A DNA stretch of 55,659 nt from a virus (IMGVR_UViG_3300028920_000083:1-55659); one strand, 5' to 3'. Shown: positions 13,932 to 48,888, counted from the first letter of the stretch. A program made the numbers and translations. Notes: a model not told the origin generated them from the letters alone.

Positions 13932-13947
13932 AGCAATTAACATGCCA
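13932..13947 (-). promoter_or_regulatory. sigma54 (-24/-12) promoter motif
   Basis: TGGCAT-GTTAA-TTGCT, GG-N10-GC spacing. Confidence 0.7.
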
Positions 13948-13973
13948 ATAATTATACAATAAAATAAAAAAAG

Positions 13974-14005
13974 TTAGTTACCAAATTCCAGTAATTGCCG
14001 TAATA
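13974..14005 (+). promoter_or_regulatory. Bipartite motif copy 2 (putative phage-sigma promoter, primase operon)
   Basis: TTAGTTACCAAA-TTCCAGTAATTG-CCGTAATA. Confidence 0.7.
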
Positions 14006-14034
14006 GATAATGGAGTAGTATATAATAACCGCAG

Positions 14035-14078
14035 TGATTTGATTTCAATATTTCCACCCGGTTTACAGAATCAAATCA
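14035..14078. repeat. Inverted repeat TGATTTGATT-N24-AATCAAATCA
   Basis: Perfect 10-bp inverted repeat just upstream of the primase start. Confidence 0.65.
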
Positions 14079-14093
14079 GGAAAGTCTGCCATT

Positions 14094-16793
14094 ATGCCCA
14101 CAAGGACAGAAGCAATTGGACGATTTTTAAATCATATAGCTGAACACGACCTTGCAGAACTCTATACTCCAGATATGGAAGTCCAAGTTAATGTAGCACA
14201 AGATGGCGGGGAGCGTATTGACGGGGATTTCAAAGGTAAGAAGTGGCATGGCTGGACAGATGGATTGACAACATGGAAGTCCTTCCGTATACCCCACCAT
14301 GCAAATACAGAGCCAGAGTATACTGATTCTGAAATCAGATTCGACCTTGAGGCTCATGCCGAAGGTATAGGCATGACAGGTTGGGATTGGAAGTCCCGAT
14401 GCAGCAAGTGGGTGGCCTTTGATTTTGATGCCATAATGGGACATTCCGATAAGCATACTCACAAACTTACAAACGAGCAGCTTGAAGAAGTTAAGCAAAC
14501 AGCAATTGCTATTGAGTGGGTAACGATTCGAAAATCTTCTTCTGGCAAGGGTCTACATTTATATGTATTCCTTGATGATGTATCTACCCAAAACCATAAT
14601 GAGCATTCAGCTTTAGCTAGAGCTATTATCGGTAAGATGTCTGCCATCACTGGCTTTGATTTTCAAAGTCATGTAGATATCTGCGGCGGTAATATGTGGG
14701 TTTGGCATCGTAAGACCGCTGGTACAGATGGTTTTAAATTAATTAAAAAAGGTATGATACTTCGTGATATTCCTCTTAACTGGCGTGACCATATTCAAGT
14801 TGTTAGTGGTCGGCGTCGAAAGAATATGCCTCAAGATATTACTGGTGCAGATAATTTAGACCTATTTGAAGAACTTGCAGGTCAAAGGCCAAAGGTTAGT
14901 TTAGAAGAATCTCATAAAAAGCTTATACAATATCTTACAGATATTGATGCTGTTTGGTGGTGGGATCAGGATCATCACATGTTAGTTACTCATACTATTT
15001 ATCTGAAAGAAGCCCACAAAGATTTGCAAATGCGGGGTTTCTTTAATACCGAAGCTGTCGGTACTGAACGTGGTGCTGACCATAATTGCTTCCTCTTTCC
15101 GATGCGGCGTGGTGCTTGGGCTGTTAGACGATTTTCACCGGGTACTCAAGAACATGAATCATGGGATCAAGACGGTGCTGGCTGGACTCGTACTTACTTG
15201 AATCGAGAACCTGATCTTAAAGCAGCTTGTAGAGCTTATGGCGGATTAGAAGATCCGTCTGGTGGATTCGTATTTCGTGAAGCTGAAATGGCTATGAAGG
15301 CAGCAGCACTTCTTGGTGTTACACTTAATATAGGTGCCCCGCTACTGTCGCGGGAGACGAAACTCAAACAACATAAAGACGGGCGGCTTGTTGCAATAGT
15401 CGAACGTAAAGAAGCAGATCGTGCTGACGAGATGGAAGGTTGGCTGCCGAAGAAAGGTGATTGGACAAAGATTCATAATACTCAAGTTACTGCACCGACA
15501 GAACCAGACATGGGTAATTATGACGATATGGTTAGACATCTAGTTACAGAGTCCGGTGAAGATTATGGTTGGATGATTAAGAGTGATGGGTATTGGCGTA
15601 ATGAACCACTTGCCCATGTTAGAATAGCATTAGGTTCACTTGGCCTCAAGTCAGGTGAAGTCTCTACGATTTTGGGATCATCCATTTTTAAATGTTGGAA
15701 AGTTGTTAACAAACCTTTCCAGCCTGAATATCCCGGTGATCGAGAATGGAACCGTAATGCTGCACAGTTCCGATTCTTGCCATCAAAAGATCGTGATCTC
15801 CATGTATATCCTACGTGGTTTAAAATCTTGCAGCATTGTGGCTCGGGTCTTGATGAAACAATCAAGAATAATGGTTGGTGTAAAGCTAATGGTATTTTGA
15901 CGGGTGCTGATTATCTTAAGTGTTGGATAGCTTCACTCTTTAGAGAGCCACTTGAACCCTTACCATATCTCTTTATGTATGGACCACAGAATAGTGGTAA
16001 ATCTATTTTCCATGAAGCACTTAGTCTACTATTAACTAAAGGCTACAAGCGAGCCGATGCGGCTCTTATAAGTCAGGCAGGTTTCAATGCCGAACTTGAG
16101 GGAGCTATAATTTGTGTCGTTGAAGAAACAGATCTTAAAAAGAATCGTACTGCTTACAATAGGATTAAGGATTGGGTAACTTCGCGTGATTTATTAATCC
16201 ATTGTAAAGGTAAAACACCTTATCATATACCAAATGCTACACACTGGATACAGTGCGCTAATGAACATCAAGCTTGTCCTATATTCACAGGTGATACTCG
16301 TATTACCATGTGCTTTGTAGAGCATCTTGATCCTACTATTATGATCCCTAAAAAGAAACTGATACCGATGTTGGAGCGTGAGGCTCCTGATTTCTTGGCA
16401 GAGATTATAGGATTAGAATTACCTCCTTCTTCTGATCGTCTTAATGTCCCGGTTATTGAAACTGAGGATAAAAATATTGCACAAAAACTCAATCAAACTC
16501 AGCTTGAATTATTTGTTGATGAAAAGACTCAACATGCTAACGGTCACATGATTAAATTTAGTGAGTTCTACGATAAGTTTTTAGAGTGGATGGACCCGAA
16601 TGAAGTCCACTTATGGAGTAAAATTAGGGTTGGGCGGGAGTTACCGCCTCAACTGCCTAAGGGTAGACGCCGATATGATGGACAATTTTATATCGGTAAT
16701 ATTTGTTGGGCAGGTATCGAATCTACTGAGGAAACAGAAAGCAAGAAACTTGTTTCCAGAAATGATTATTTAGTTGAAATCGAAAATGATTAA
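14094..16793 (+). CDS. AEP primase fused to SF3 (D5-like) helicase
   Basis: AFDFD (motif I), SSSGKGLHLY (motif II); Walker A GPQNSGKS, Walker B ICVVEE, motif C QCAN. Confidence 0.88.
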   Translation: MPTRTEAIGRFLNHIAEHDLAELYTPDMEVQVNVAQDGGERIDGDFKGKKWHGWTDGLTTWKSFRIPHHANTEPEYTDSEIRFDLEAHAEGIGMTGWDWKSRCSKWVAFDFDAIMGHSDKHTHKLTNEQLEEVKQTAIAIEWVTIRKSSSGKGLHLYVFLDDVSTQNHNEHSALARAIIGKMSAITGFDFQSHVDICGGNMWVWHRKTAGTDGFKLIKKGMILRDIPLNWRDHIQVVSGRRRKNMPQDITGADNLDLFEELAGQRPKVSLEESHKKLIQYLTDIDAVWWWDQDHHMLVTHTIYLKEAHKDLQMRGFFNTEAVGTERGADHNCFLFPMRRGAWAVRRFSPGTQEHESWDQDGAGWTRTYLNREPDLKAACRAYGGLEDPSGGFVFREAEMAMKAAALLGVTLNIGAPLLSRETKLKQHKDGRLVAIVERKEADRADEMEGWLPKKGDWTKIHNTQVTAPTEPDMGNYDDMVRHLVTESGEDYGWMIKSDGYWRNEPLAHVRIALGSLGLKSGEVSTILGSSIFKCWKVVNKPFQPEYPGDREWNRNAAQFRFLPSKDRDLHVYPTWFKILQHCGSGLDETIKNNGWCKANGILTGADYLKCWIASLFREPLEPLPYLFMYGPQNSGKSIFHEALSLLLTKGYKRADAALISQAGFNAELEGAIICVVEETDLKKNRTAYNRIKDWVTSRDLLIHCKGKTPYHIPNATHWIQCANEHQACPIFTGDTRITMCFVEHLDPTIMIPKKKLIPMLEREAPDFLAEIIGLELPPSSDRLNVPVIETEDKNIAQKLNQTQLELFVDEKTQHANGHMIKFSEFYDKFLEWMDPNEVHLWSKIRVGRELPPQLPKGRRRYDGQFYIGNICWAGIESTEETESKKLVSRNDYLVEIEND

Positions 16794-16992
16794 AGACATT
16801 TTGGATAAGCTACCTGAGGAACAGCGTAAGCAACTCATGCACGCTTTTGAGCATGAGTTTGCTCAATACGTTGAATTACCTGATGGTAAATTCATCGGTG
16901 TTAATGTAACACCGGTTAAGCATTTAAAGATTCGAGAATCAGCAGGTAATTGGCATTATGGTGATGTTATGAAAGGTACAAAGGATGAGTGA
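16786..16992 (+). CDS. Hypothetical protein
   Basis: Overlaps the primase stop. Confidence 0.6.
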   Translation: MIKDILDKLPEEQRKQLMHAFEHEFAQYVELPDGKFIGVNVTPVKHLKIRESAGNWHYGDVMKGTKDE

Positions 16993-17167
16993 ACAATTTA
17001 GAGAACATTTATCAGCAGCCATTAACCTAGCGATTGAGCGGACTCTTGCAGAGTATGATGATATAACTTACTCAGAAGTGATAGGTGTTTTAGAGACAAT
17101 CAAGATGGAAACATTCTTTGAGTATTTGGAGGCTAAGAGAGATGGCGAAGAAGAAATCGGAACTTAA
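16985..17167 (+). CDS. Hypothetical protein
   Basis: Coupled small acidic ORF. Confidence 0.6.
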   Translation: MSEQFREHLSAAINLAIERTLAEYDDITYSEVIGVLETIKMETFFEYLEAKRDGEEEIGT

Positions 17168-17528
17168 GGATTCTGGGAAGCGTCGGAAATTCCAGACAGG
17201 AGCAGTCAGGGATGTGACGACTCTCAAGGGAGCATACCACCTTCTGAGCCCGATAGCGAAACGCCGACTAGCTATACATAGCCAGCGTGGAGCTATAAAA
17301 TATAGCGATCGGAATTGGGAAAAAGGTATTCCTCTTTCTTCGTTCTTTGATTCTGCTTGTCGGCATCTAGATGATTACCTTGAAGGTAAAGATGATGAAG
17401 ATCATCTTGCGGCAGCATTTTGGAATATACAAGGACTCATCCATACTGAGGAGATGATTAAAAGAGGCTTACTGCCAGAGCATCTTAACGATTTACCCGT
17501 CTATATAAAGGGTAAAAAACGTGACTGA
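17142..17528 (+). CDS. dATP/dGTP diphosphohydrolase domain protein (DUF5664-like)
   Basis: F-x-TGAVRD...KG...GAIKYSDRNWEKGIP...RHL...EDHLAAAFWN. Confidence 0.8.
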   Translation: MAKKKSELKDSGKRRKFQTGAVRDVTTLKGAYHLLSPIAKRRLAIHSQRGAIKYSDRNWEKGIPLSSFFDSACRHLDDYLEGKDDEDHLAAAFWNIQGLIHTEEMIKRGLLPEHLNDLPVYIKGKKRD

Positions 17529-18393
17529 CCTACTAAGTATGTTTGAAGATTTAGATCGTAACGCGGAACAATCTACCCGTGAGACAATCTTAAGAGCACC
17601 ATTCAAATATCCGGGCGGAAAGTCTCGGTCTATAAAATTCATTATACCACGACTGCCTTATCGTGGTATGTATATTGAGCCTTTCGGTGGATCGGCTGCT
17701 GTTTTACTTGCTAGACACCCTAGTAAAATGGAGGTTTTCAATGATAGATATGCTGGTGTCGTTGCCTTTTATCGTTGCCTACGTGATCCGAAACGTATGG
17801 CAAGACTATGTGAAGCTATCGAACTATCTGTCCATAGTCGAGAAGATTTTATAATCAATCGGGATTGGCAAAATCCGGATGATGATATCGAGCGAGCCTT
17901 TAGATGGTATTATATGACTGAGTATTCTTTTGCAGGTCTTGGCCGAAACTTCGGACGCTCAACATCTGCAAAAGCGTCGTTAGCTAGTATAAGAGATAAG
18001 CTTCCATTATTCCCATTAATACATGACCGGTTCAAAAAGGTACAGGTCGAGAATCAAGATTGGTATGACTGCATACAAGATTATGATAATCCTGATGCTG
18101 TATTCTATATTGATCCTCCATATATTGATGCTGACACAGGTATCTATAAAAGTAAAATGACGCATGATGATCATCGACGGCTTCTCGATGTTATCATGCA
18201 TCTACAAGGTTTTGCAGCAGTATCCGGTTATTCCAATCCTTTGTACGAGAATCAAGAGTGGGATGCCCGCTACGAGTGGGAATCTTTTGTGTCAATACAG
18301 TCTCAAGCCTATACTGAGACAAATCGTAAGGCTCATTTAAAAGGTGTGGATAAAAGATCCACAGCTAAGGAGGTACTGTGGGTGAAAGAATAA
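17521..18393 (+). CDS. Dam/D12-class DNA adenine methyltransferase
   Basis: YPGGKS, YIEPFGGS, ND, DPPY. Confidence 0.9.
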   Translation: MTDLLSMFEDLDRNAEQSTRETILRAPFKYPGGKSRSIKFIIPRLPYRGMYIEPFGGSAAVLLARHPSKMEVFNDRYAGVVAFYRCLRDPKRMARLCEAIELSVHSREDFIINRDWQNPDDDIERAFRWYYMTEYSFAGLGRNFGRSTSAKASLASIRDKLPLFPLIHDRFKKVQVENQDWYDCIQDYDNPDAVFYIDPPYIDADTGIYKSKMTHDDHRRLLDVIMHLQGFAAVSGYSNPLYENQEWDARYEWESFVSIQSQAYTETNRKAHLKGVDKRSTAKEVLWVKE

Positions 18394-18965
18394 AGCAGCA
18401 TTGGTGGGATGAAGAAGATAATATTTATTCGTGGCTTTACGGTGAGAAAGGATATGGTAGTGGCCCTATTGATGAGTTACTCAAACATACATATAACCGC
18501 ATGGTAACTTGTCAAAAGATTCTAGATGCAGGTTGCGGTAAATGTGATTTCACTCGTAAGATGCGGAGTCGTGGTTACACTAATATGACTTATGGTGTTG
18601 ATGTTAGTAAGCATGTTATTGACCATGCTCCAACTAGTTGCTGTGCTATACATCGTTCACTAGACGATATGCCATTTGATACAGACTTCTTCGACGGTAT
18701 ATGGTGCTGTGATGTTATGGAACATATACCACCGGAAAAAGTGGACAAGGTTCTCGCTGAACTGCGACGAGTCCTGCAACCTGATGGTAAAATCGCCTTC
18801 TCAATTAGCGGACTGCCTGCAAGGTGGAAAGGCCCGAAAGGTCAGGAACTACATTTGACAATCCGAGATCTTGATTGGTGGGTATCGGTGCTTGCAAGTC
18901 ATGGATTACCGATAGGTTTCCAGTATATCATTCCGAGGCGTCAAGCTTATATTATTTGGGGTTAG
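18378..18965 (+). CDS. Class I SAM-dependent methyltransferase (small-molecule/sugar type)
   Basis: ILDAGCG, GVDVS, DVMEHIP...LRRVLQPDG. Confidence 0.85.
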   Translation: MGERIKQHWWDEEDNIYSWLYGEKGYGSGPIDELLKHTYNRMVTCQKILDAGCGKCDFTRKMRSRGYTNMTYGVDVSKHVIDHAPTSCCAIHRSLDDMPFDTDFFDGIWCCDVMEHIPPEKVDKVLAELRRVLQPDGKIAFSISGLPARWKGPKGQELHLTIRDLDWWVSVLASHGLPIGFQYIIPRRQAYIIWG

Positions 18966-18966
18966 C

Positions 18967-19428
18967 ATGTCTGAGGATAGATGCGTCCGTTGCGGAGTAA
19001 CTGCCAATGTGGTCCCGCATCTTGAACGTAGACGCGATGGATTAATTTGTAAATCTTGTGCTAATAATGAGATGATATATATTGCTACCCCGTATTCGCA
19101 TAAGAATCCTGAGATTCGGGAAATCCGTTTCAAACAGGCTTGCATAATAGCCGGGACACTTATACAAGAAAGCCATAGAGTTTTCTCTCCAATCATTGCT
19201 TGTCACCCAATTGCGCGATATTTTAATTTACCTTATGATCATGTCTGGTGGCAACGTGTTGATGAAATTTTTATGAGTATGTGTACTATTATATACGTAA
19301 TCAAGTATAGTGGATGGGAGGATAGTGATGGTATAGCTTTTGAAATATACCTTGCTAACCAGCTTAACCTGCCCGTCTTTTACGTAGAGATTCCCAATGC
19401 CTTAATCGAGGAGACTACCAATGGCTAA
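18967..19428 (+). CDS. DUF1937-like (nucleoside deoxyribosyltransferase-fold) protein with N-terminal zinc ribbon
   Basis: IYIATPYSH...VFSPI...HPIA...GWEDSDGIAFE; CVRC...CKSC. Confidence 0.7.
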   Translation: MSEDRCVRCGVTANVVPHLERRRDGLICKSCANNEMIYIATPYSHKNPEIREIRFKQACIIAGTLIQESHRVFSPIIACHPIARYFNLPYDHVWWQRVDEIFMSMCTIIYVIKYSGWEDSDGIAFEIYLANQLNLPVFYVEIPNALIEETTNG

Positions 19429-20050
19429 TTCGATGCAGCACTGGAATGGCAACCAGTTATGTGTTATAGATACCGAGACAACGGGTCTTGATGCATACTG
19501 GCATGAGATGATTCAGATTGCTATTGTAGCTTTGGATTCTGACATCAAACCACGCCAAGATGTTCTGCCATTTTATATTGAAATTATTCCTGAGCATCCA
19601 GAACGTGCAGATAAGAAAGCTATGGAAGTTAATCGTAAAACTTTCACCGAGATAGCACAACGCGGGCATGATCGTGAGAAAGCTAAGGATCTCCTTGAGG
19701 AATGGATTAAAACCTTGGGGCTCCCTACAACGAAGTATGGGAACCCCAAGAAGATTATCCCATTAGGCCAGAATTACGCCTTCGACATGGGATTCATTAA
19801 ACAGTGGTTAGGTGTCGATCTATATAATGACCTCTTTGATTACCATTATGTCGATACAATGATTACTGCTCACTTTCTGAATGATCGGGCTGCTGCTCAT
19901 GCTGAGAAGGTTCCGTTTTCAAAGACGAATCTCCAGTGGCTGGCTCGGACTCTTGGGGTTCAACGGGATCGGGCTCACGATGCTCTACAGGACTGTCTAT
20001 CAACGGCTGATGTGTATCGGTTGATGCTTTTACAGGGGCTTTTACTTTGA
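19421..20050 (+). CDS. DEDDh 3'-5' exonuclease (DnaQ-like)
   Basis: IDTETTG, QNYAFD, HDALQD. Confidence 0.88.
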   Translation: MANSMQHWNGNQLCVIDTETTGLDAYWHEMIQIAIVALDSDIKPRQDVLPFYIEIIPEHPERADKKAMEVNRKTFTEIAQRGHDREKAKDLLEEWIKTLGLPTTKYGNPKKIIPLGQNYAFDMGFIKQWLGVDLYNDLFDYHYVDTMITAHFLNDRAAAHAEKVPFSKTNLQWLARTLGVQRDRAHDALQDCLSTADVYRLMLLQGLLL

Positions 20051-20762
20051 CAAATTCGTGAGGATGTCCATCAAGAGCAAGCTTAATACGCTGACAGTGC
20101 TCTAAGAATCGCCGAGGATCGCCGCCTCGGGCGGGAGTATGGCCTATGCAATCCGCATAGTCTAAGCTGCCATCAATACAGGCATCAAAACACAGGAAAG
20201 TGATTTTAAGACATCCAAACTTTTTAGCAAGTTTTAATCCTAAAATCGAAGTAAGACATGCCCGAGGTTCACCAACGAAAGGCGGGGCTAATACATACTT
20301 ATTCTTTATATCGTGATACCAATGAATTAATCCCGGATTAATAATTATTGCAGCACGCTTTGGGAGACATTCACGCTGTAGTCTAACATCGTGCTGCATT
20401 GCTAATGTTACATGCGGCAAATTTAAAGTTTCAATCTTATGGATAGATTCATTAACACACATGATAACAGCGTCTTGATTCGGGAAATCCACCGCAGAAA
20501 TACGATCAAGACTTGAACCCTTACCAACCATATAAATCTGCTTACCCTTTAAGATTGGTCTAAGCTTATTAATATCGTGACCGGCTTCACCCTTAGCATA
20601 CCACTTAAGTTCACCCGGTACACGTACAAAATTAGCATCAAGCTCGGCCATAGCTTGTCGATGCTTACGTGGAATACCGAATGTTCCATCTCCAAATCGG
20701 CGAACACGCTGTTTACAAACTTCCGAAGGTACTCCGACAAAAGCTTCATCACTAAGATCCAT
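19863..20762 (-). CDS. DUF115/Maf-like (sialyltransferase-like Rossmann fold) putative glycosyltransferase
   Basis: IYMVGKGSSL, MCVNES and GCLKITFLCFD motifs; C-terminal tail overlaps the convergent exonuclease gene. Confidence 0.55.
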   Translation of the reverse strand: MDLSDEAFVGVPSEVCKQRVRRFGDGTFGIPRKHRQAMAELDANFVRVPGELKWYAKGEAGHDINKLRPILKGKQIYMVGKGSSLDRISAVDFPNQDAVIMCVNESIHKIETLNLPHVTLAMQHDVRLQRECLPKRAAIIINPGLIHWYHDIKNKYVLAPPFVGEPRACLTSILGLKLAKKFGCLKITFLCFDACIDGSLDYADCIGHTPARGGDPRRFLEHCQRIKLALDGHPHEFVKVKAPVKASTDTHQPLIDSPVEHREPDPVEPQESEPATGDSSLKTEPSQHEQQPDHSESEQ

Positions 20763-20764
20763 CT

Positions 20765-21472: not shown

Positions 21473-21776
21473 TTATGAACGCCTTTAAATCCCTAGCACT
21501 AACCGCGTAGTATCCACCTAAATCCATCTTTGTTACTATATCCTTTTCACCTTCAACTGTGACCAGAATCGGTTTATTCGTCGCAATCTTAATCGCGCCT
21601 TTTGCCTCTTCCGGTGCTGCTGCAAAGGATGCATATACAAGAGTCTGTTTCTCCTTAACCCCTATTGAGCATCCTGTCATAACGATTAACAAGATCATCA
21701 GCAGGAGTAGAGACAGTATCAAGCGATCCCTCCACATTGGAGACATCAGTTTCAACTGCTGGTGTTGACAAAACAT
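21444..21776 (-). CDS. Lipoprotein, o-spanin (Rz1-like) candidate
   Basis: Basic/hydrophobic signal RDRLILSLLLLMILLIV plus lipobox MTG-C; overlaps the i-spanin candidate in a shifted frame. Confidence 0.65.
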   Translation of the reverse strand: MFCQHQQLKLMSPMWRDRLILSLLLLMILLIVMTGCSIGVKEKQTLVYASFAAAPEEAKGAIKIATNKPILVTVEGEKDIVTKMDLGGYYAVSARDLKAFINAIKKINGR

Positions 21777-22428: not shown

Positions 22429-22436
22429 AACTCCTC

Positions 22437-41700: not shown

Positions 41701-43660
41701 GCATAATCGTTTTTTCAACAACAGTTTGTTCAAATTGATCAGCACCAATATCCCAAGCCATTGAATCATCACGAACCTTACCATTTATATCTTCTTGCCA
41801 AGGTAGTTGTAAGTCCCAACTAAGCCACGCACCTGCACCCTTAGCATCAGTATCATCAACACTGATTCGATAATCATCATTAGCTTCATCAATAAAGTCT
41901 ACAGCTTTACTGCGGTATGCTGAATCAGGGCTTGAAGTATCTTCACTAAGATTATTACTATGCACATAAGTAGTGAAAGATGTTATTGCATAATCAGTAG
42001 GATTACCATTACAAATATTATTCTTAAGGTATAATGCAACATCACCCGCACTATCTTCAATCTGAATACCTCTATTAACATTATCTACAAGCGTATTATT
42101 ATAGATAACAAATGTATTACCTGTTCCACCATAATCATAATATATGCCTACATACCAGTCATAAATTATATTATTCCACATACGATGGACACCATCAGCG
42201 CAACCATCTTGCTGGATACCTGCATCACTAACACTGTCAGGAGTACCACCACCTGTCCAACGTATAATATTATTAAAAATCTCATCGCCCATAGCATTAT
42301 TACGGATGCCCATAACATTGCCAGTTGTCGCATCAGTCCAGTCATTAGCAATTTGTAGACCTTCAACAGTTACATAATCAGTATCAATAAAGAGGGCACC
42401 ATTCCACTGACTAGCTACCTCAAGAATATATTTATCAGTATTCCATTTACCAGTATGTGCAGCCGTCGCCTCATTACAACATATCCAAATTCTACGCTGT
42501 GCATCTGTTACCCAAGCTGCATCATCAATAGCACAATAAGTAGTATCAGGGCCACCACTCCAATCACCTTCAATACTTGCCATAGCAAGATGATCAGCCG
42601 TCACAAGATCAGCAGCTTCACCAGCTTCCCATGCACTAAGACTTGTATAATCACCACCCGAGGGCTTAACAGTTCTTTTAGACCTTGCAGGTGCTTCACT
42701 AGCACCTATATCCCAAGTACCAGCAACTGGTCGTGTTCTGCCAGATATGTCTGTATTAAATGCAAGATAAGGATCAGCACTAAGGTCTGCACCATGATTA
42801 CGTGCATGTGTAGTTTTATCAATACGTGATAAGCGGAAGTCCTTTGTCTGATACTGTGCAAACATCGGCACCTTCTGCCTATAGTCCTGACCATCCGGTG
42901 AAGTCTGATCCATAGAAATATTAGCAACAGTTTGTAATGTACTCACACCACTAAGACTGTAATTAGCTTGGCTACCATTGCCAATAATATTATTCTTAAG
43001 GCGGACAGTAGAAACTGTTGCAGAATCATTGAAAAGTATGCCGTAATTGACAAGATCATAAAGTGTATTGTTATAGGCTATAAGCGTTATATTGCCACCA
43101 GCACTAAAGCGTATGCCATGATAGAAGTTATGTGCTATACAATTCCACATCTTAATTGTAGTATTATCACCCACAGTACCAAGATCAAGGAAACAATCAA
43201 GGTTACTAGAAGGATTTGCACCAGTACCCTTAGCAAGTATTGCTTCAAACTCATATTCAGGATTAAGCACTGGATTACCATCGGGGCGGAAACACTTTGT
43301 TGCAACAGTAGTACGGTTACATTCTATCTGGATATAACGAATCTTAACATGGCTGGCCTGTAACCGTATTACTCCATGAACACTTTCACCCTTTAAAATA
43401 TACTTATTAGAATCCCAAACACCAGAAGTATGATTTGCTGAATCTGCTTTAATCTCGATATATCGAGTAGAATCAGTAGTCCAATCAGTGCCAAGTTCAA
43501 CAGCAGCAGTATCAGGACCACCGCTCCAGTCACCTTCAATAGAAGCGATCGCTATCTCATCAGCCGTAACAAGATTACGTGCCTCACCTGCATCAAAAGC
43601 AGCAAGTGAAGAATAATCGCCGCCTGACGGCTTTACTGTTTTGGTTACTGGAGTTGCCAT
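38729..43660 (-). CDS. 1643-aa protein of five tandem right-handed beta-helix modules (putative head fibre or depolymerase)
   Basis: Five ~320-aa repeats, each starting T-[VI]-x-x-SGGDY and ending WD[IA]GA-x-[EQ], with NNT/KNN beta-helix signatures. Confidence 0.75.
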   Translation of the reverse strand: MATPVTKTVKPSGGDYSSLAAFDAGEARNLVTADEIAIASIEGDWSGGPDTAAVELGTDWTTDSTRYIEIKADSANHTSGVWDSNKYILKGESVHGVIRLQASHVKIRYIQIECNRTTVATKCFRPDGNPVLNPEYEFEAILAKGTGANPSSNLDCFLDLGTVGDNTTIKMWNCIAHNFYHGIRFSAGGNITLIAYNNTLYDLVNYGILFNDSATVSTVRLKNNIIGNGSQANYSLSGVSTLQTVANISMDQTSPDGQDYRQKVPMFAQYQTKDFRLSRIDKTTHARNHGADLSADPYLAFNTDISGRTRPVAGTWDIGASEAPARSKRTVKPSGGDYTSLSAWEAGEAADLVTADHLAMASIEGDWSGGPDTTYCAIDDAAWVTDAQRRIWICCNEATAAHTGKWNTDKYILEVASQWNGALFIDTDYVTVEGLQIANDWTDATTGNVMGIRNNAMGDEIFNNIIRWTGGGTPDSVSDAGIQQDGCADGVHRMWNNIIYDWYVGIYYDYGGTGNTFVIYNNTLVDNVNRGIQIEDSAGDVALYLKNNICNGNPTDYAITSFTTYVHSNNLSEDTSSPDSAYRSKAVDFIDEANDDYRISVDDTDAKGAGAWLSWDLQLPWQEDINGKVRDDSMAWDIGADQFEQTVVEKTIMQSGGDYTSLAAFEAGERQDLVHTGIILEGKIDGAWTVNDTTKVLFQDSDGWCTAKGNYIRVYTTPTARHRGRPSISYLQHYRLITVGTYYDAIRAWTHCIRFEGLEVQNTTTTAAQIGSCISLGTSGLANGKFIDLRATECLIHNALGGAGNTGSHGIACAVSGISGAVGQYVLVNNIIYGNEHDGIHACQWQANMEVIAYNNTCYKNGRYGIHRAIATSMPLYVKNNLCDQNVTADYLMAYTASATNVSGDGSSPERKNQTPDYIDPGEYTTGYDYRINGEDTSSIDQGTDLSADAKYAFNTDILGNTRSGTWDAGAREYIGSVITRTIATSGGDYSDVDAFEAGEADDLVYAGTQVVAEISGTGVSENQYWFRQADGWYTGKGNGIKITTLDDGARHHGKWTTSAYRVVGASNGVVTSMVKEFWLDGLQIHLDGSNSGDNGIWITNSLRHNIKISNCIIKGNDTAGGGQYGYYLASARAGAEYRLWNNIIYGFTGAGSGGPMQIGGTNNLHYMWVYNNTCYGGITGILSGAALAEAVLKNNIVQGAGTDYSGTFDAASDSNLASDATAPGSNPQNNKSLQFVGFEFDDYRIIPQDTDAIDNGVDLSADSAIAFNTDIDGHTRGATWDIGASEVVTPAMRSKTIRESGGDYSSFNAFLVGEEADLVHDAVYLVATISGAWSADDTTQADCTGTGWVTTSANYIKVEATGAGKHSGGIWTSTAYRLVVNGVCVNLTDGPLKHIWLKHLQIHKNNTAANSAVQFNVNVSGTPSPSICQVEGCIIKGGGVGAAGNHAGIDVSWNYGYNQIVKAWNNVIYDFGATGYKECAIKIRKAIAFLYNNTLAKSRYGIYDDGNGSDIIAKNNISQAAGTTPIDYVNSFNVASTDNLSGDATAPGSNPEINKTLTFKNKAADNYNLITTDPARDKGADLSADADLAFNTDLSGRTRVVPWDIGALEYSENGGEGDDASVALVSSVMRRNARRRLMYADD

Positions 43661-43665
43661 ATTAC

Positions 43666-43998
43666 TTAGCCCTCGTTATCAGTAATATCTTTAACCGCAA
43701 TAGCCTTCTTGCCACCAGCAGCAAGAATGTCATCAACCTGTGCATTTGTAAAACTATACTTCTTTGCAGTTTCCTTCATCACAGTTGGCACACCAGTCGC
43801 AGGATCAGGTTCGCCAAGAGACTGCTCACCTGTCTCATATCGAGCAAGGAAATCAGTTTTATCATCATCAACTTCAATAATCACAAACTTCTCAGTATTA
43901 AGTTCCTCAGTACCCCACTGCTTGCCGGAAGGTCCAACAGAGATAATCTCTCCACGCCTATTACCTTCTCTTGCAAGTACCAATAACTCCCTAGCCAT
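43666..43998 (-). CDS. Hypothetical virion-associated protein
   Basis: TAATG coupling; in the head operon. Confidence 0.6.
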   Translation of the reverse strand: MARELLVLAREGNRRGEIISVGPSGKQWGTEELNTEKFVIIEVDDDKTDFLARYETGEQSLGEPDPATGVPTVMKETAKKYSFTNAQVDDILAAGGKKAIAVKDITDNEG

Positions 43999-44132
43999 TA
44001 TCCCTTCCTCCCACGGCCTTTACCCCGGCCACCGCCTTTACCATAGCCGGGGCCTCCACGGCTACAGCCACCTTTATTTCGATTAGCTCCGACACCCTTG
44101 CCAGAACCATTACGCCTCGGTCTGCCTGCCAT
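43998..44132 (-). CDS. 44-aa Gly/Arg/Lys-rich basic protein
   Basis: MAGRPRRNGSGKG...GRGKGRGRKG; AAGGA RBS; overlaps the portal stop. Confidence 0.6.
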   Translation of the reverse strand: MAGRPRRNGSGKGVGANRNKGGCSRGGPGYGKGGGRGKGRGRKG

Positions 44133-45837
44133 TTTCCTTTTCCTTTTCTCCTGCCTTATCATCGGCAGATAAATCACTAACGCCCCTTGCGCCAGCTTCA
44201 CTCTGAGCGAGCGCAATACGCGCCGCCCGTTCAGCATGATCCTTCTTAGCTTGTTCAACTTGTCCAGCAGGATAACCACGGATTTTAGAAGCAAGCTCTG
44301 TAGAAACAAAGCCTGCTTCATGGTCCGTATTAATTGTCTCAGCATCACTAACTATAACTTCTGCTTGCTCAATTTCTCCATAAATAAGTTCAAGAGTATC
44401 ATTAGATATTTTATGACCAACAATCACATTTGCAATGTTCTTAGCAAGTTCTTTCTGATAAGTTTTCGATGGGATAGATTCCATTAATTCTTTGAGTTCA
44501 TCAGCTTCCTTACGGCGTTCAGCGTCACTACGTAGATTATAACGAGTCGGATACTTGACAGTAGGAACATCACTACCGCCTTCATATGCTGTCCATATAA
44601 TACCAACTTCACGCTCGCCGTGTTCAAGCTCAAGACCAATACAAGATAAGCCAGCCTCAAGACCATGCTCGTCAATACTCTTACTCTCGGCACTTGCCCT
44701 CTGTGGAGCAATATTAGTTATAGCAAGATTAACAAGCTGACGTATCTCTTGTTTAATCTTCTCTTGCTTCTCCATACTAGCGATAAGCGGTTCTGCGGAC
44801 GGATGTATAAATCCGGGCCTCTCAACATCCTTCGGATATCTACGACCTTGTGTAGCTCCAACCTTAATAGACTTACCAGAAGCTTTCTGAGTAGGAGCAG
44901 ATTCGCCCGCCTTCTCATCACTAGTCTTAGGTACTGCTGTTCTAGTGAACACCATCTCTGAGTTAGGATTATATTGCTCAGTATAGAATGGGAAGTTAGC
45001 TTTGAGAGCATAGTTAATATCTGAGGAAGCCAAATTAAGTAAAGCGATTTGATAATCAGCCACATCAGTAAGTAGAGACTGGCCGATATCAAAGACCACA
45101 AACGGTATTACTGGAATCTCTATAGTAGTAGCTTTGTCATTAAGTTCATTACCAACATCATCATAGAATTTGACTTCAACTTTACCCTCAATAAGTCTTA
45201 GTAACCTGTACTCCTCAACTTGATCACATACTAATCCATAATCATCACAAGTAACATCCTTATGGTCACGTAATAAGACAGATGTGAAATTACCAGCCTT
45301 ATCAGTAGCCCAAGACCGGATATCTTCGACCTGATACATATATAGATACGGGTGTATCGTGCGCGTGTCCGCGCGTGAGGCACCTTCCTTCACTTCTGGC
45401 TTATCTATAAAGACGCCTACCTTACCCATCGCAAGAAGCTCAGGTAAGATACCTGTACCTACAAAACTAGTCATAGTATTGGCTTGAAGATCAACACCAC
45501 CAAGCTCACCTACTACTGCTTTGCGATAAGAGTCAGGACCACTAGTCCTTGTAATATCTACCATACGCTGATAGATAGCATTCTTGATATCAATTATTGC
45601 AGCCTTAGCATGACTAGGTGAATAAGAAATCTTCTTTCTAGATGTAAAATCTCCACTATCTTCACGCGCGCTGAACCGCTCAAGGTATTCATCTACGAAA
45701 TCATGCCCACCCTCATAGGTGTATCTATACTTCTCCCAATCCGATACCATAGCATCGTAATCAGGATGCGTAATCGAATTTGGCTTAGAAACGGCCTCAC
45801 CCTGATAGCAGAGTTGCCATATCTTATACAACACCAC
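44110..45837 (-). CDS. Portal protein
   Basis: THPDY...W...Y-x-GG...YL...E...R N-terminal portal pattern, IPFV; follows TerL; GTG 45837 after GGAGG. Confidence 0.85.
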   Translation of the reverse strand: MVLYKIWQLCYQGEAVSKPNSITHPDYDAMVSDWEKYRYTYEGGHDFVDEYLERFSAREDSGDFTSRKKISYSPSHAKAAIIDIKNAIYQRMVDITRTSGPDSYRKAVVGELGGVDLQANTMTSFVGTGILPELLAMGKVGVFIDKPEVKEGASRADTRTIHPYLYMYQVEDIRSWATDKAGNFTSVLLRDHKDVTCDDYGLVCDQVEEYRLLRLIEGKVEVKFYDDVGNELNDKATTIEIPVIPFVVFDIGQSLLTDVADYQIALLNLASSDINYALKANFPFYTEQYNPNSEMVFTRTAVPKTSDEKAGESAPTQKASGKSIKVGATQGRRYPKDVERPGFIHPSAEPLIASMEKQEKIKQEIRQLVNLAITNIAPQRASAESKSIDEHGLEAGLSCIGLELEHGEREVGIIWTAYEGGSDVPTVKYPTRYNLRSDAERRKEADELKELMESIPSKTYQKELAKNIANVIVGHKISNDTLELIYGEIEQAEVIVSDAETINTDHEAGFVSTELASKIRGYPAGQVEQAKKDHAERAARIALAQSEAGARGVSDLSADDKAGEKEKENGRQTEA

Positions 45838-47470
45838 GGATATCCTCCGATCTTGCAAGACCAACAGCTAATTGTATGGCTAACTCCGCGTATGTTCGGG
45901 CATGAGCGAAGTGATCCTCCTCATTCCCTGTTACATACTTACCCACCGGATTGCCCAATATATCCTTAGAGTAGATACGAACAAGAGCCTTAAGATGTTC
46001 TTTGTACTCATGGGATAAGTCTTTTGGAAGGATCATCTTCTCACGTCTAAATCTACTTAAGGCTAGGTCAATCCAAGATGTTCGATCCACAGACATCGTA
46101 TGCTCTTCTTCGGCATGTATATGTATAGCCTTACTATTAATCCCGGTGCCATAGAAACAAAGCTTAACATGGCCCCAAAAGCGTTGTGCAAATTCCAGAG
46201 CTTTACGCCGCTCCGGGTTAGCGTCGATAACCGCGAAGGCTACACCGTATTGCTGGATCAGATAATCAAGTTCCTCGAAGTGTTGTACTTTACCCTCAGT
46301 CAACAACCGAGTAGTTGTTGCTAAATTAATATCGTTAGTCGAAGTTTCACGGTCAATAAAGACCTGATCAATCTCATAATGCAGCCATTTGCCAACGTCA
46401 ATACCCATAACAACCATACCTTGGCCTGTACTAGTCTTAACATGAGTACCAGTACATTTCTCAATATCTGCATCTGTAATACGTGCGCCTTCTACTATAT
46501 GTGTTAAGCCAAGCTTAGAGTTATAAAACTCTTGCTCATCAGTAGGGTTACTCTGAGCCTTCAAATAGAGTGTTGCAATTTCATAAGGCTTCACGGTCAT
46601 GGAGTAAAGTTGATTAATATGATAACCTTCTATTAGTCTGTCAGTATGACCACGTACCCATCGTGCATTACGGAGCCAATCGATTTTAGAATCATGCTCC
46701 AACTTATGGTCACATTCTTTACACTTAAGATGAGTATCAAGAATAGCGATATCATCAGGATCATCACCGATTATGACAAGACACTCAGGGAATACTAGCT
46801 CAGTCAGCCTGTTACAGTGTGGACACCGGAAGAAGAAATGACTTTGAGAGGATTTCTTGAAATACTGATTGATGCCAAAATTATCAATAGTAGGTGTTGA
46901 CAACGCAAGAGCTTGCTTCTCAAGCTGACCACTAGTTCTCTCAAGAGCCAAGCTTATATTGTCCTGCATCATCTCGTCAAGCTCATCAAAAACTATGAGC
47001 CCGACTGGTACAGACTTAAGCTGACTCCGTGACCTACTCCCGCGTATATATAGATTCGCGTGACCCGCGCGCTTATGGTGAATATTCTTGACATCCGTGA
47101 ACAGTGTTTCTAGATGTGGAGAACCTTCAAGAGCAGGATCGAAACGTGCTGTAGAGAAGTCTGTAGCGTCAGGATTATTAGCTGGTAGCACATAGAGGAC
47201 GCTGATACCATCTATGTCGATAGCCTTAAACGTCTTATTAAGTGCCCACTCAGTGAAGCCCATCTGAGCAGCCTTTTGACCGACCACCATTTCAGCATCT
47301 GCATCATGCATCTCGCGCGTCCACGGGTGATGATCAAAAGTCCATGGACCGGGGAACGGCGCACCCATGACACGATACATCTCTGCCCATCGTGAGCAGG
47401 ATGTCGCAGTCTTACGGCGTAAGCCGTCAGAGACTCGTTGGGTGAGCATCTCTATCAAACCCGTTCCCAT
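45824..47470 (-). CDS. terL: Terminase large subunit (lambda GpA-like)
   Basis: KAAQMGFTE, FDELDEM, STPT, CPHC, MGIDVG, DHFAHA. Confidence 0.9.
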   Translation of the reverse strand: MGTGLIEMLTQRVSDGLRRKTATSCSRWAEMYRVMGAPFPGPWTFDHHPWTREMHDADAEMVVGQKAAQMGFTEWALNKTFKAIDIDGISVLYVLPANNPDATDFSTARFDPALEGSPHLETLFTDVKNIHHKRAGHANLYIRGSRSRSQLKSVPVGLIVFDELDEMMQDNISLALERTSGQLEKQALALSTPTIDNFGINQYFKKSSQSHFFFRCPHCNRLTELVFPECLVIIGDDPDDIAILDTHLKCKECDHKLEHDSKIDWLRNARWVRGHTDRLIEGYHINQLYSMTVKPYEIATLYLKAQSNPTDEQEFYNSKLGLTHIVEGARITDADIEKCTGTHVKTSTGQGMVVMGIDVGKWLHYEIDQVFIDRETSTNDINLATTTRLLTEGKVQHFEELDYLIQQYGVAFAVIDANPERRKALEFAQRFWGHVKLCFYGTGINSKAIHIHAEEEHTMSVDRTSWIDLALSRFRREKMILPKDLSHEYKEHLKALVRIYSKDILGNPVGKYVTGNEEDHFAHARTYAELAIQLAVGLARSEDIRGVV

Positions 47471-47488
47471 AACTACTATCCTTTGGAC

Positions 47489-47749
47489 CTAGACCACTGT
47501 AACTACAATCACGTCTGACCCGTCGCCCTTGAGCCAAAGATTCTTGGTACTAAACGCAGGCAGGGCAACATTCTTACCCGGAGACACGTAACCGCCCATA
47601 TCACTATTACCGCCGTGCTCAAAATTAATGTCATTAGTATTGGTTTCTGGACCTTGTAATAGGATTCCAGAATCCACATGTCTTTTCTGACTACCTAACA
47701 ACTCATAAAGAGTTGTAGGCGTCGTTGTTGGTGTAATCGTTCTAGTCAT
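47489..47749 (-). CDS. Hypothetical small beta-rich protein
   Basis: Coupled ORF between TerS and TerL. Confidence 0.6.
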   Translation of the reverse strand: MTRTITPTTTPTTLYELLGSQKRHVDSGILLQGPETNTNDINFEHGGNSDMGGYVSPGKNVALPAFSTKNLWLKGDGSDVIVVTVV

Positions 47750-48296
47750 CTTTACCTATCCTCCCTACAATCTCCAGTATCCCTGTACTGATTTGGTCAA
47801 TCTTCTCTGGCTCATCCAGATGCTCGGTTATCACAGTGATAACCTCATTAGCAAACTGGAGTATTGCTTGCTTATCAAGAAGCTGACCAAGAGAACCCTC
47901 AAGCTTGTGACAAGAATTAACAACCTTATCAATCTTCATCACAAGGTCAGAGATAGGACCGGATTGTAAAATCAGGTCAAGCTCTGTGGAGCAATGCTCA
48001 AGACGCTCCTGCATCAGCATTCTTAAAATCGCTATCTCATCCCGGAGGCTTTTCACGTCCGGGGCATCTCTATGCTGGTCAAGTTTTGCTTGCCACTTTG
48101 TCAACACATAGTTTCTCATGGCTTCTCGATTCCGCCTTTTTATGGCGTGCGCGCCGCCGTGGCAAATACAATAATCCGAGCCATCGACAGCTTTATTCAT
48201 ACACTGCCCATATTGCGTGTTGGTAGCCTGACACCTTCTAGGGTCATCCTCAGCTACCTTAATGATTTTGCGATCCTCTTCACCCACTGTGTTCAC
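47742..48296 (-). CDS. Terminase small subunit candidate (HGG zinc-finger type)
   Basis: RCQA...C...C-x-x-HGG, then helical domain; first gene of the late operon. Confidence 0.6.
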   Translation of the reverse strand: MNTVGEEDRKIIKVAEDDPRRCQATNTQYGQCMNKAVDGSDYCICHGGAHAIKRRNREAMRNYVLTKWQAKLDQHRDAPDVKSLRDEIAILRMLMQERLEHCSTELDLILQSGPISDLVMKIDKVVNSCHKLEGSLGQLLDKQAILQFANEVITVITEHLDEPEKIDQISTGILEIVGRIGKDD

Positions 48297-48343
48297 GTTT
48301 CCTTGTCAAAATCATTCCCAATACAGCCACAGTATCCACTAGG

Positions 48344-48375
48344 TATTACGGCAAATTCTGCAATATGGTAACTAA
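48344..48375 (-). promoter_or_regulatory. Bipartite motif copy 3 (putative phage-sigma late promoter)
   Basis: TTAGTTACCATA-N12-CCGTAATA ending 48 nt upstream of the TerS start. Confidence 0.72.
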
Positions 48376-48535
48376 AAATTTTAGAAATTTTTTGACGCCC
48401 TACCGTGTACAGTGCCATGATTTTACAATCATGAGTTGTGATTTTACCCACCCTGTAGGGTGTATAGCATATAGCGTCTTGTGTCAAGCGTCGGGATTCT
48501 GTGATTTTGCAGATCTGATACAATGGGGAGGGGGT

Positions 48536-48551
48536 AGCAAATTTTATGCCA
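48536..48551 (-). promoter_or_regulatory. sigma54 promoter motif facing the morphogenesis operon
   Basis: TGGCAT-AAAAT-TTGCT. Confidence 0.7.
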
Positions 48552-48649
48552 TATACCATCTTATTATAGATTTTAAACCCACCCGGTATTTTTATACTCC
48601 TTTATACTATTCTCATAGATTTATTGACATTATTAACAGTTTGGCATAG

Positions 48650-48685
48650 GTCATTATGACACGGTTGTTTTGTCATTCTGACACG
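48650..48685. promoter_or_regulatory. Tandem quasi-palindromic sites, candidate enhancer (UAS)
   Basis: GTCATTATGACACG and GTCATTCTGACACG, 22 bp apart, core (T)GTCA-N3-TGACA. Confidence 0.55.
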
Positions 48686-48822
48686 TAGGATTACACCACG
48701 TCTAGATTGGTAGTATTTGGCTTATACTATCATTTTAGAGTCGTTGTGGGGTATTCCGCCACAATCGATGTAGGAATTCAAGACTCTCGGCGCTACCATA
48801 TAGGTAACTATCACAGATTGGC

Positions 48823-48851
48823 TTGAAAAGGCCATTTCAAAGCATTATAAT
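48823..48851 (+). promoter_or_regulatory. sigma70-type promoter
   Basis: TTGAAA-N17-TATAAT. Confidence 0.7.
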
Positions 48852-48872
48852 GCTACCGATTTTTGTATCGTT

Positions 48873-48888
48873 TGGCATGGCCTTTGCT
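48873..48888 (+). promoter_or_regulatory. sigma54 promoter motif facing the rightward block
   Basis: TGGCAT-GGCCT-TTGCT. Confidence 0.68.

Follow-up and report, generated by a model that had tools for sequence, protein, structure and literature searches.

The window, by which we mean the whole stretch of DNA analysed (55,659 nt of an uncultured marine-sediment phage, IMGVR_UViG_3300028920_000083), carries four exact sigma-54-type boxes. With a probability of about 0.6, we regard them as real sites for host sigma-54, most likely activator-dependent promoters, and the phage probably expresses part of its genes in dependence on a host signal. Direct observation covers the sites with their statistics and placement and the absence of a recognisable phage activator, whereas sigma-54 binding, firing and which activator would act are inferred. 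The initial annotation had already read three of the boxes as sigma-54 promoters. This reading is supported in part, by their beyond-chance number, strict spacing, promoter-like placement, consensus purine, recurrence in some relatives and the absence of a recognisable phage activator, while its claim of an unknown circuit does not hold, as discussed below.

Sigma-54-type boxes in the window

An exact search for TGGCAT-N5-TTGCT returned four matches in the window. The expected number is 0.03, the value that had been estimated initially. Three of the sites, 13932-13947(-), 48536-48551(-) and 48873-48888(+), had been listed before and were found again; that list was incomplete, as a fourth exact site at 53777-53792(+) had been overlooked. 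The boxes and the starts predicted from their positions are as follows.

13932..13947, minus strand: box 1, TGGCATGTTAATTGCT, sigma-54-type, 216 nt from the ParB-like gene, the first of the replication operon
near 13921, minus strand: predicted start of box 1
48536..48551, minus strand: box 2, TGGCATAAAATTTGCT, sigma-54-type, 240 nt from the 184-aa first gene of the packaging/virion operon
near 48525, minus strand: predicted start of box 2
48873..48888, plus strand: box 3, TGGCATGGCCTTTGCT, sigma-54-type, facing the rightward unit 48917..50848
53777..53792, plus strand: box 4, TGGCATAGCAATTGCT, sigma-54-type, antisense within the ORF 53549..54013(-)

Control patterns (reversed, with the blocks swapped, or with a spacer of 3, 4, 6 or 7) gave no match in the window. 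Allowing one or two mismatches revealed no excess there either, with 17 further matches against about 20 expected in all; the four exact boxes are distinct from this background of near-matches. In all four the GG and GC doublets are exactly 10 nt apart, which is the sigma-54 spacing. A chance origin has only the small number of sites in its favour. It is virtually negligible given that none of 100 dinucleotide shuffles reached four exact boxes and that three of the four fall in non-coding DNA, which makes up a few percent of the window.

The genes that surround the boxes were assigned by domain, family and homology searches.

12742..13716, minus strand: ParB-like protein, first gene behind box 1 (domain/family searches)
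14094..16793, plus strand: primase/helicase-like protein with a DUF5906 domain (homology search)
45824..47470: large terminase gene, following the 184-aa gene in the packaging operon
47742..48296, minus strand: 184-aa protein, first gene of the packaging operon (homology searches)
49778..50848, plus strand: ParB-N-like protein closing the rightward unit behind box 3 (Pfam match below the curated cut-off)
52700..53545, minus strand: phage sigma-70-family sigma factor, 281 aa (Pfam Sigma70_r4, 1.3e-9; PHROG 351)
1473..2138, minus strand: second phage sigma-70-family sigma factor, 221 aa (PHROG 351, 2.3e-14)

Boxes 1 to 3 lie within two divergent non-coding control regions, 13717-14093 and 48297-48916, and each is oriented toward the first gene of an operon. 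The three boxes reported initially are thus indeed non-coding and operon-facing; only short, unsupported ORFs overlap boxes 2 and 3. The unit 48917..50848 behind box 3 consists of a doubtful 133-aa ORF, an 81-aa ORF and the ParB-like gene. For the 133-aa ORF we found no family, no Atlas lead and no homologue in any locus, and its predicted fold is poor (mean pLDDT 53.8), so it may not be a gene. Boxes 1 to 3 are upstream of the genes that they face, but box 4 is not placed in this way. It has no ORF to serve and, as seen in the direction of transcription, closely precedes the phage sigma gene at 52700..53545; the ORF around it gave a single 20-residue match in a homology search. Among the differences listed for the contigs of four DNA runs compared with 48200-54000, none falls within boxes 2 to 4, but a further 71 differences lie outside this listing and these strains are nearly identical, so that their comparison is no test of constraint.

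The sigma-54 consensus is TGGCAC-N5-TTGCW, and the base that follows TGGCAC is G or A, mostly G. This base was left free in our searches. Of the 23 distinct sites of the window and its relatives, 14 have G at this position and the other 9 have A; none has C or T. A purine at this unselected position is what the extended sigma-54 consensus would predict.

Boxes in relatives and in other viral contigs

We searched 60 related viral loci (597,726 nt, duplicate contigs counted) for TGGCAY-N5-TTGCW and found 12 boxes, against 2.0 expected from Markov simulations of the same loci (sd 1.4, maximum 6 in 40 runs) and 0-5 matches for control patterns. A further 52 metagenome loci contained 10, against 0-2 for the controls (duplicate contigs again counted). 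In the relatives, hardly any box falls within an ORF of 100 aa or more. Orthologues of box 1, with the same place and orientation between the primase and ParB-like genes, are present in three loci (L038, L044 and L056), whose ParB-like proteins are 45-62% identical to that of the window. Divergent sites resembling box 3 are found in relatives of two types (L002 and L008) at 521-609 nt from the homologue of the 184-aa gene, the distance in the window being 577 nt.

Conservation in relatives, which the initial annotation had proposed as a check, was thus borne out in part: boxes recur at matching control regions in some relatives, but their distribution is patchy. An orthologous box 1 is present in only 3 of 36 primase loci and is missing from the closest relatives, whose primase is 71-72% identical. 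On a quick primase tree its carriers are scattered, with three changes, no better than shuffled labels. Boxes are wholly absent from three of five long relatives, which were chosen by length. The metagenome scan returned no relative closer than 67% identity in the terminase.

In viral contigs at large, correctly spaced pairs of the box were found in at least 120 stretches, compared to 5 for a control with a 7-nt spacer, and are thus at least 24 times commoner than with the wrong spacing. Among the stretches listed, the free position holds a purine in 291 of 307 distinct 16-mers (G 197, A 94), and 52 of the 120 paired-box stretches have boxes on both strands. This spacing-strict enrichment fits best with one factor that would be common to many hosts, and it suggests that sigma-54-type boxes are common in uncultured phage contigs. 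Our literature search found no publication on such boxes being common in uncultured phages.

The motif might instead be the operator of another DNA-binding protein, of phage or host, that resembles a sigma-54 box. In one relative (L109) a segment of 130 nt holds five strict boxes, distributed over both strands and some of them convergent and overlapping, so that not all can be working promoters; they build 37-nt palindromes, AGCAA-N5-ATRCCA-N5-TGGCAC-N5-TTGCT, with an 11-nt phasing as for an oligomeric binder. In the window, an imperfect inverted copy at 48907-48922 accompanies box 3, and the region 48297-48916 is somewhat richer in TGGCAY half-sites than the window as a whole (5 against about 0.7 expected from the window-wide density). 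We nevertheless consider an operator improbable. The motif agrees with the sigma-54 consensus at 11 fixed positions and at the free purine, and its enrichment with strict spacing over many viral contigs makes a phage-specific protein inadequate as an explanation. Core phage proteins, including the neighbouring conserved ParB-like and 184-aa proteins, are found both with and without the box, which makes a conserved phage protein unlikely as its reader. For the small ORFs adjoining box 3, none of the loci contains a homologue.

Candidate neighbouring promoters, search for an activator and proposed circuit

Several other promoter-like or candidate control elements are associated with the boxes.

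13841..13872, minus strand: phage-type promoter candidate, copy 1, TTAGTTACCA-N14-CCGTAATA, 59 nt downstream of box 1
13974..14005, plus strand: phage-type promoter candidate, copy 2, exact repeat facing the primase gene
48344..48375, minus strand: phage-type promoter candidate, copy 3, exact repeat 160 nt downstream of box 2
48515..48525, minus strand: CATTGTATCAG, copy 1, at the predicted start of box 2
48649..48685, no strand assigned: pair of tandem near-palindromes located between boxes 2 and 3 and 22 nt apart, GGTCATTATGACACG and TGTCATTCTGACACG
48823..48851, plus strand: near-consensus sigma-70-type promoter TTGAAA-17-TATAAT (11/12), ending 21 nt before box 3
53805..53815, plus strand: CATTGTATCAG, copy 2, 12 nt past box 4

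The exact repeat occurs three times in the window against 0.03 expected and looks like a promoter for a phage-encoded sigma factor. Boxes 1 and 2 are upstream of copies of it, in agreement with the tandem arrangement described initially. In a search of relatives, its core matched none of 257 loci. Of the two phage sigma factors, the product of 1473..2138(-) also matches Sigma70_r2 (8.2e-5), just under the curated cut-off. A search for the phage sigma factor in relatives yielded no locus in viral contigs and no match in the five long relatives. The sigma-70-type promoter at 48823..48851 is a consensus match only, the regional count of such matches not exceeding that in shuffles. Counted from the predicted start of box 2, the two near-palindromes are centred about 131 and 153 nt upstream, and they are a candidate enhancer or operator. 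Their GTCAT-type sequence has no further occurrence in the window, and no candidate enhancer was seen near boxes 1 and 4, the only one being that between boxes 2 and 3. The 11-mer CATTGTATCAG has exactly two exact copies in the window. A search for a tyrosine integrase found none.

Boxes 1 and 3 also allow a reading as ordinary sigma-70 promoters with TTGGCA as the -35 hexamer (TTGGCA-18-TATACT and TTGGCA-16-TACAAT, each 10/12), the sigma-54 match being incidental. Such matches are no more numerous in the two regions than in shuffles, the invariant TTGCT within the spacer is left unexplained, boxes 2 and 4 lack a -10 hexamer, and G+C-rich DNA follows the boxes of many relatives. A purely sigma-70 nature is thus very improbable; a dual sigma-70/sigma-54 promoter is possible at boxes 1 and 3.

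DNA opening by the sigma-54 polymerase requires an AAA+ activator. Searches of the window, of 10 related records, 4 of which have terminal repeats, and of the phage YuA revealed no Sigma54_activat domain (PF00158), and no GAFTGA motif occurs in an open frame of the window, in accordance with the initial remark that no GAFTGA-type activator is visible. The phage itself encodes no Sigma54_DBD. Since sigma-54 needs an activator and the phage has no recognisable one, the promoters should fire only with an active host activator. A search of RNA runs for the sequence gave no run that contains it. A sigma-54 DNA-binding domain is present in all four MAGs into which relatives were binned, binning being weak host evidence. 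A host call from these MAGs was rejected: the relatives fall into MAGs of four different phyla and are most likely binned phage contigs.

With their -24/-12 layout, box 1 would read into the ParB-like/replication operon, box 2 into the terminase/virion operon and box 3, placed just after the sigma-70-type promoter, into the small rightward unit that closes with the ParB-like gene. The phage-specific promoters downstream of boxes 1 and 2 would most likely be read by one of the two phage sigma-70-family factors. Box 4 may fire, or may merely sit, antisense, in the early block leading to the phage sigma gene. Through the sigma-54 boxes, the state of the host would then become a further input to a programme that otherwise depends on sigma-70 and the phage sigma factors.

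The boxes could also bind the sigma-54 polymerase mainly without firing, as closed-complex roadblocks, promoter competitors or a sink for host sigma-54. The absence of an activator gene from the window and the 10 related records points in this direction. Box 3 starts 22 nt past the -10 hexamer of the near-consensus sigma-70 promoter, so near that a complex on the box would overlap this promoter or block it, and box 4, which serves no ORF, would be met by leftward transcription on its way to the phage sigma gene. The boxes overlapping in both directions in L109 and the frequency of both-strand boxes in the viral stretches listed are also in line with it. However, boxes 1 and 2 are upstream of the phage-type promoters and outside their path, so blocking of those transcripts is impossible, and the operon-facing orientation that recurs in relatives is needed by a promoter, not by a roadblock. 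We therefore hold non-firing sites to be rather unlikely.

A further reading, which we consider doubtful, is that boxes without a recognisable activator gene are a widespread, undescribed device of uncultured phages, in which the polymerase is parked and released in a non-classical manner; the window phage would then be a clear case of it. The releaser might be an unrecognised phage-encoded activator or a ParB/KorB-like DNA-loading clamp acting from the phage-specific repeats that adjoin the boxes. The antisense box 4 and the CATTGTATCAG sequence shared at the starts of boxes 2 and 4 might then act together as a switch for the amount of phage sigma factor.

Comparison with known systems and significance

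Activator-dependent promoters for host sigma-54, the reading that we prefer, can be compared to three known systems. Bacterial enhancer-dependent sigma-54 promoters (glnAp2/NtrC, pspA/PspF and Pu/XylR types) have GG and GC exactly 10 nt apart and an extended box TGGCAY(G/A)-N4-TTGCW upstream of operons. The boxes of the window share this spacing, extended box and placement, and the paired repeats about 130-150 nt upstream of box 2 are at the usual enhancer distance. In contrast to bacterial promoters, they lie on a phage genome with no cognate activator gene nearby, leaders of about 200 nt with a second, putative promoter follow boxes 1 and 2, and one box is antisense and intragenic. In phage sigma-factor cascades, such as that of SPO1 gp28 and gp33/34, the phage encodes its own factors. 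The window phage likewise encodes sigma-70-family factors and has an exact promoter-like repeat before three operons, but differs in the host sigma-54 boxes stacked upstream of two phage-type elements; we are not aware of a description of such an arrangement in SPO1-type cascades.

The Pseudomonas aeruginosa phage YuA (Yuavirus), reported by Ceyssens et al. 2008 (J Bacteriol 190:1429), has a siphovirus-sized genome (58.7 kb) like the window phage. Its GenBank record lists two sigma-70 promoters, three '-24/-12 consensus' promoters in the virion region and five repeats labelled 'putative sigma70 promoter requiring phage-encoded cofactor'. These annotations and the lack of Sigma54_activat in YuA indicate the same overall regulatory logic: host sigma-70, host sigma-54 and phage-specific promoters without a recognisable phage activator, identified in the window phage by sequence only. 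The initial annotation did not recognise such a three-tier circuit from characterised phages; all three classes are in fact annotated in the YuA record. The two phages nevertheless differ. YuA contains no strict TGGCAY-N5-TTGCW in its first 50 kb, and its annotated fragments show only weak GG-N10-GC matches, the third none at all, whereas the boxes of the window phage are canonical. These are located in two divergent control regions before the replication and packaging operons, with one antisense box, and are in tandem with phage-sigma-type promoters; the window phage also encodes two sigma factors of its own. No kinship to Yuavirus was detected. Nucleotide searches with 13000-20000 and 47000-51000 gave no match to cultured phages, and protein searches returned only remote terminase, primase and sigma matches, those of the primase covering 13-21% at 26-32% identity and not including YuA. 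According to the passages of PMC5053324 and PMC10914365 that deal with YuA, its development depends on host sigma-54 and nine of its promoters share a phage-specific motif; phage use of host sigma-54 is termed rare in the corresponding part of PMC5053324.

YuA is the single cultured phage for which host sigma-54 use is documented, and with only remote matches in cultured searches, the window phage has no cultured relative for comparison. Its compact control region is suited to the direct study of how such promoters are activated. If the boxes are working promoters, phage output would depend on a stress or nutrient signal of the host, since no activator is recognisable in the phage itself. Such dependence would bear on the behaviour of phages in starved sediment communities.

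Exact sigma-54-type boxes and their genomic setting

The window, which is the entire linear IMG/VR virus record (55,659 nt), has a G+C content of 42.7% and is about 60% complete according to the CheckV estimate; near-identical DNA is present in three marine-sediment metagenome runs. Nucleotide and protein searches found no close relative among cultured phages. Related uncultured contigs are plentiful; of the five long relatives, four carry terminal repeats and are 64-68 kb in size. The genes of the window are organized as follows.

13716 down to 3, leftward: replication block (ParB-like protein, SNF2-type helicase, second ParB-like protein, family-A DNA polymerase, NYN-domain protein, 221-aa sigma factor, ligase)
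14094-20050, plus strand: rightward block (DUF5906 primase/helicase, methyltransferases, deoxyribosyltransferase, exonuclease)
48296 down to 19863, leftward: long packaging and virion block (184-aa protein, large terminase, 1643-aa repeat protein, P22-type coat protein, tape-measure protein)
48917-50848, rightward: short unit, the last gene of which is ParB-N-like
55515 down to 51607, leftward: block with tRNA-Leu and a 281-aa sigma-70-family sigma factor

A sigma cascade is suggested by the presence of two sigma-70-family sigma factors, the gene for one (1473-2138, minus strand) located distally in the replication operon and that for the other (52700-53545, minus strand) in the leftward block with the tRNA gene. 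Three ParB-N/HTH_ParB-like proteins are found in this one phage (12742-13716 and 8519-9385, minus strand; 49778-50848, plus strand), two of whose genes are the first or last of units served by sigma-54-type boxes. A tyrosine integrase was looked for in the window and not found. The 1643-aa protein (38729-43660, minus strand), sited between the portal-side genes and the coat gene, has no Pfam family and is made up of some five internal repeats whose period is 945-993 nt (about 320 aa). At 17521-19428 (plus strand), a DNA methyltransferase, a second methyltransferase and a nucleoside 2-deoxyribosyltransferase are clustered, which hints at modified DNA bases.

The initial annotation had reported three sigma-54 promoter sites. 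All three stand, but the count does not, as a fourth exact site is present on the plus strand.

13932-13947, minus strand: box 1, exact TGGCAT-N5-TTGCT
48536-48551, minus strand: box 2, exact TGGCAT-N5-TTGCT
48873-48888, plus strand: box 3, exact TGGCAT-N5-TTGCT
53777-53792, plus strand: box 4, exact TGGCAT-N5-TTGCT

Shuffled sequences gave 0.03 matches, the chance level also estimated initially, and none of 100 shuffles reached four. Control patterns with a spacer of 3, 4, 6 or 7 nt, reversed or with swapped blocks had no match in the window. When one or two mismatches were allowed, only 17 extra matches appeared, while about 20 were expected in all; there is no excess of near-matches, and the exact boxes thus form a distinct class. 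Boxes 1-3 lie inside two large divergent non-coding regions and are aimed at the first genes of operons, in agreement with the intergenic location and correct orientation first assigned to them. Box 4 lies within an ORF on the opposite strand (53549..54013, minus strand), and no ORF of at least 60 aa was found downstream of it. Boxes 2 and 4 constitute a subclass, TGGCATA...TTGCTA, and have CATTGTATCAG in common, located at the predicted start or immediately behind it and present in no further exact copy in the window; a similar doubled CATTGTGCA follows the box of the L002 type of related contig. The initial observation is therefore confirmed and extended.

Box 1 (TTGGCA-18-TATACT) and box 3 (TTGGCA-16-TACAAT) also match a sigma-70 promoter, each at 10/12 positions, and dual promoters are possible. 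Such matches are, however, no commoner than in shuffles, and a sigma-70 reading leaves the invariant TTGCT unexplained.

The putative phage-type promoter reported in tandem with the leftward boxes is a real element: TTAGTTACCA-N14-CCGTAATA occurs in exactly three copies in the window, against 0.03 expected. The first is 59 nt past box 1, the second 160 nt past box 2, and the third faces the primase gene. With its GTTACC and CGTAAT, 16 nt apart, the element resembles an ECF-type promoter. No copy was found in 257 loci, nor was the 281-aa sigma factor found in the five long relatives, a pattern compatible with a sigma factor and a promoter that form a pair specific to this lineage.

Other repeats accompany the control regions. 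Inverted repeats AATCAAATCA/TGATTTGATT at 13773, 14035/14069 and 2817/2948 stand in leaders directly before the ParB-like, primase and other genes, and the motif recurs in leaders of five related loci (L032, L040, L044, L055, L067); it may be an operator or a leader hairpin that the family has conserved. Two long-range pairs of G+C-rich inverted repeats (49404-49430 with 50880-50906, 93% complementary; 49441-49464 with 49734-49757, 88%) bracket a ParB-like gene and an 81-aa ORF, and strain differences among the sediment runs are densest at 49580-49670, between these repeats. The 133-aa ORF behind box 3 (48917-49318, plus strand) could be assigned to no family and has homologues in none of the loci; its model is unlike a folded protein (mean pLDDT 53.8), and a related strain carries a 4-nt insertion in it near 48937-48939. 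A leader or a non-coding RNA may occupy the 560 nt that follow box 3.

The motif in related viral contigs

In order to assess the motif beyond the window, we counted TGGCAY-N5-TTGCW in 60 related viral loci (597,726 nt) selected without regard to it. Twelve matches were observed, against 2.0 in Markov simulation (maximum 6 in 40 runs) and 0-5 for control patterns; in 52 metagenome loci, 10 boxes were found against 0-2 for controls. Duplicate contigs were kept in both sets (L052 = L058; L086 = L087; L091 = L092 = L002 type). The base following TGGCAY, which no search had fixed, is always a purine (G at 14 and A at 9 of 23 distinct sites), in agreement with the textbook sigma-54 consensus TGGCAC(G/A). 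Nearly all of the relatives' boxes lie outside ORFs of at least 100 aa, the exceptions being those in L024 (113-aa ORF) and L052/L058 (321-aa ORF).

Binding of a different protein to the motif has to be taken seriously. This reading was raised by one relative, L109, in which five strict boxes and a sixth TGGTAT variant are packed into about 130 nt on both strands (836-980). Within the array are a convergent overlapping pair and two palindromes of 37 nt that stand 64 nt apart; a consensus sigma-70 promoter and a (CCCCGAA)n run adjoin it. Its boxes cannot all be working promoters. Against such a protein, the conserved neighbour proteins are present with and without a box, no locus holds a homologue of the small ORFs beside box 3, and the motif equals the sigma-54 consensus at every informative position. 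Moreover, a scan of viral contigs for two boxes 20-50 nt apart returned at least 120 stretches, against 5 with a 7-nt spacer. Among the 120 stretches listed (L133-L252), 92 have three or more boxes, 52 have boxes on both strands, and 291 of 307 distinct 16-mers carry a purine at the unfixed position; the stretches hold up to 9 boxes within 400 nt and have a G+C content of 31-64%. Recurrence of a spacing-bound motif across so many unrelated contigs, some of which may include host DNA, points to one common host factor as its putative reader.

In L038, L044 and L056, a box lies between the primase and ParB-like genes and is aimed at the latter, as is box 1; these ParB-like proteins are 62%, 45% and 51% identical to that of the window, a divergence at which intergenic DNA no longer aligns. 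In a pool of 36 loci that have at least 700 nt of sequence upstream of the packaging operon, duplicates included, six distinct phage types carry boxes there, and a divergent box stands 521-609 nt from the homologue of the 184-aa gene, the first of that operon, in the L002 and L008 types, compared with 577 nt in the window. A scan of relatives had been proposed initially as a check: the box is enriched and occupies matching positions in some of them, but its conservation is patchy. An orthologous box 1 is absent in 33 of 36 primase loci, including the closest relatives (primase 71-72% identical). Box carriers are dispersed on a quick primase tree (3 changes needed, no better than shuffled labels), and no box occurs in three of the five long relatives, which were selected by length. 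Relatives picked for having a box have one each, which makes the four of the window unusual.

Short repeats of the GTAAGTC/ACTGAC type stand beside boxes in three phages (window 13880-13915, L056, L008). Simple repeats also lie directly upstream of boxes, (GGTCCCC) about 17 times in L043 (~3610-3730) and CAGAGGCCCG-type iterons in L008 (~4580-4760), each phage having its own type.

Activator, host and comparison with phage YuA

Searches of the window, of 10 related records and of YuA detected no Sigma54_activat domain, and the open frames of the window hold no GAFTGA motif, which bears out the initial remark that no such activator is visible. A 2026 preprint describes a T4-like phage protein with an enhancer-binding-protein-like fold without GAFTGA; our Pfam search of the window proteins returned nothing comparable. 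All four MAGs holding binned relatives encode a sigma-54 DNA-binding domain, which hints at a host carrying sigma-54.

The closest case is Pseudomonas phage YuA, to which the window phage is not kin. Its development is described as strictly dependent on host sigma-54, a use that is rare but not unprecedented (PMC5053324), and another article attributes to it one sigma-54-like promoter, one sigma-70-like promoter and nine with a phage-specific motif (PMC10914365). The YuA GenBank record holds two sigma-70 promoters, three '-24/-12 consensus' promoter fragments in the virion region and five repeats annotated as promoters requiring a phage cofactor. All three promoter classes being present in YuA, the three-tier logic is known, although the initial annotation did not recognise such a circuit from characterised phages. 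The boxes of the window phage are far more canonical than those of YuA, and differ in lying in divergent control regions, in tandem with phage-sigma promoters and, for one of them, antisense. A literature search found no paper on sigma-54 boxes across phage genomes.

Proposed working of the boxes

We propose, with a probability of roughly 0.6, that the boxes are host sigma-54 promoters needing a host activator. The sigma-54-driven operon switch suggested at the outset is partly supported: motif statistics, spacing and placement fit promoters, and the patchy conservation speaks against a simple picture. The reading ranked next, in which the boxes are docking sites that do not fire, appears unlikely.

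Two tandem near-palindromes at 48649-48685, the only such repeats in the window, have their centres about 131 and 153 nt ahead of the predicted start of box 2 and are equally good candidates for an enhancer and for a phage operator; the repeats beside relatives' boxes are quite unlike them.

As sigma-54 promoters, with the C of GC taken as -12, the boxes would start transcription at about 13921 (minus strand), 48525 (minus strand), 48899 (plus strand) and 53803 (plus strand). A near-consensus sigma-70 promoter (TTGAAA-17-TATAAT) stands so close ahead of box 3, which begins 22 nt past its -10 hexamer, that the two polymerases would compete there, or a parked sigma-54 complex would block. Transcription from box 4 would run against that directed at the phage sigma gene. 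From boxes 1 and 2, upstream of the phage-type promoters, transcripts would read through into the replication operon and the virion operon, respectively.
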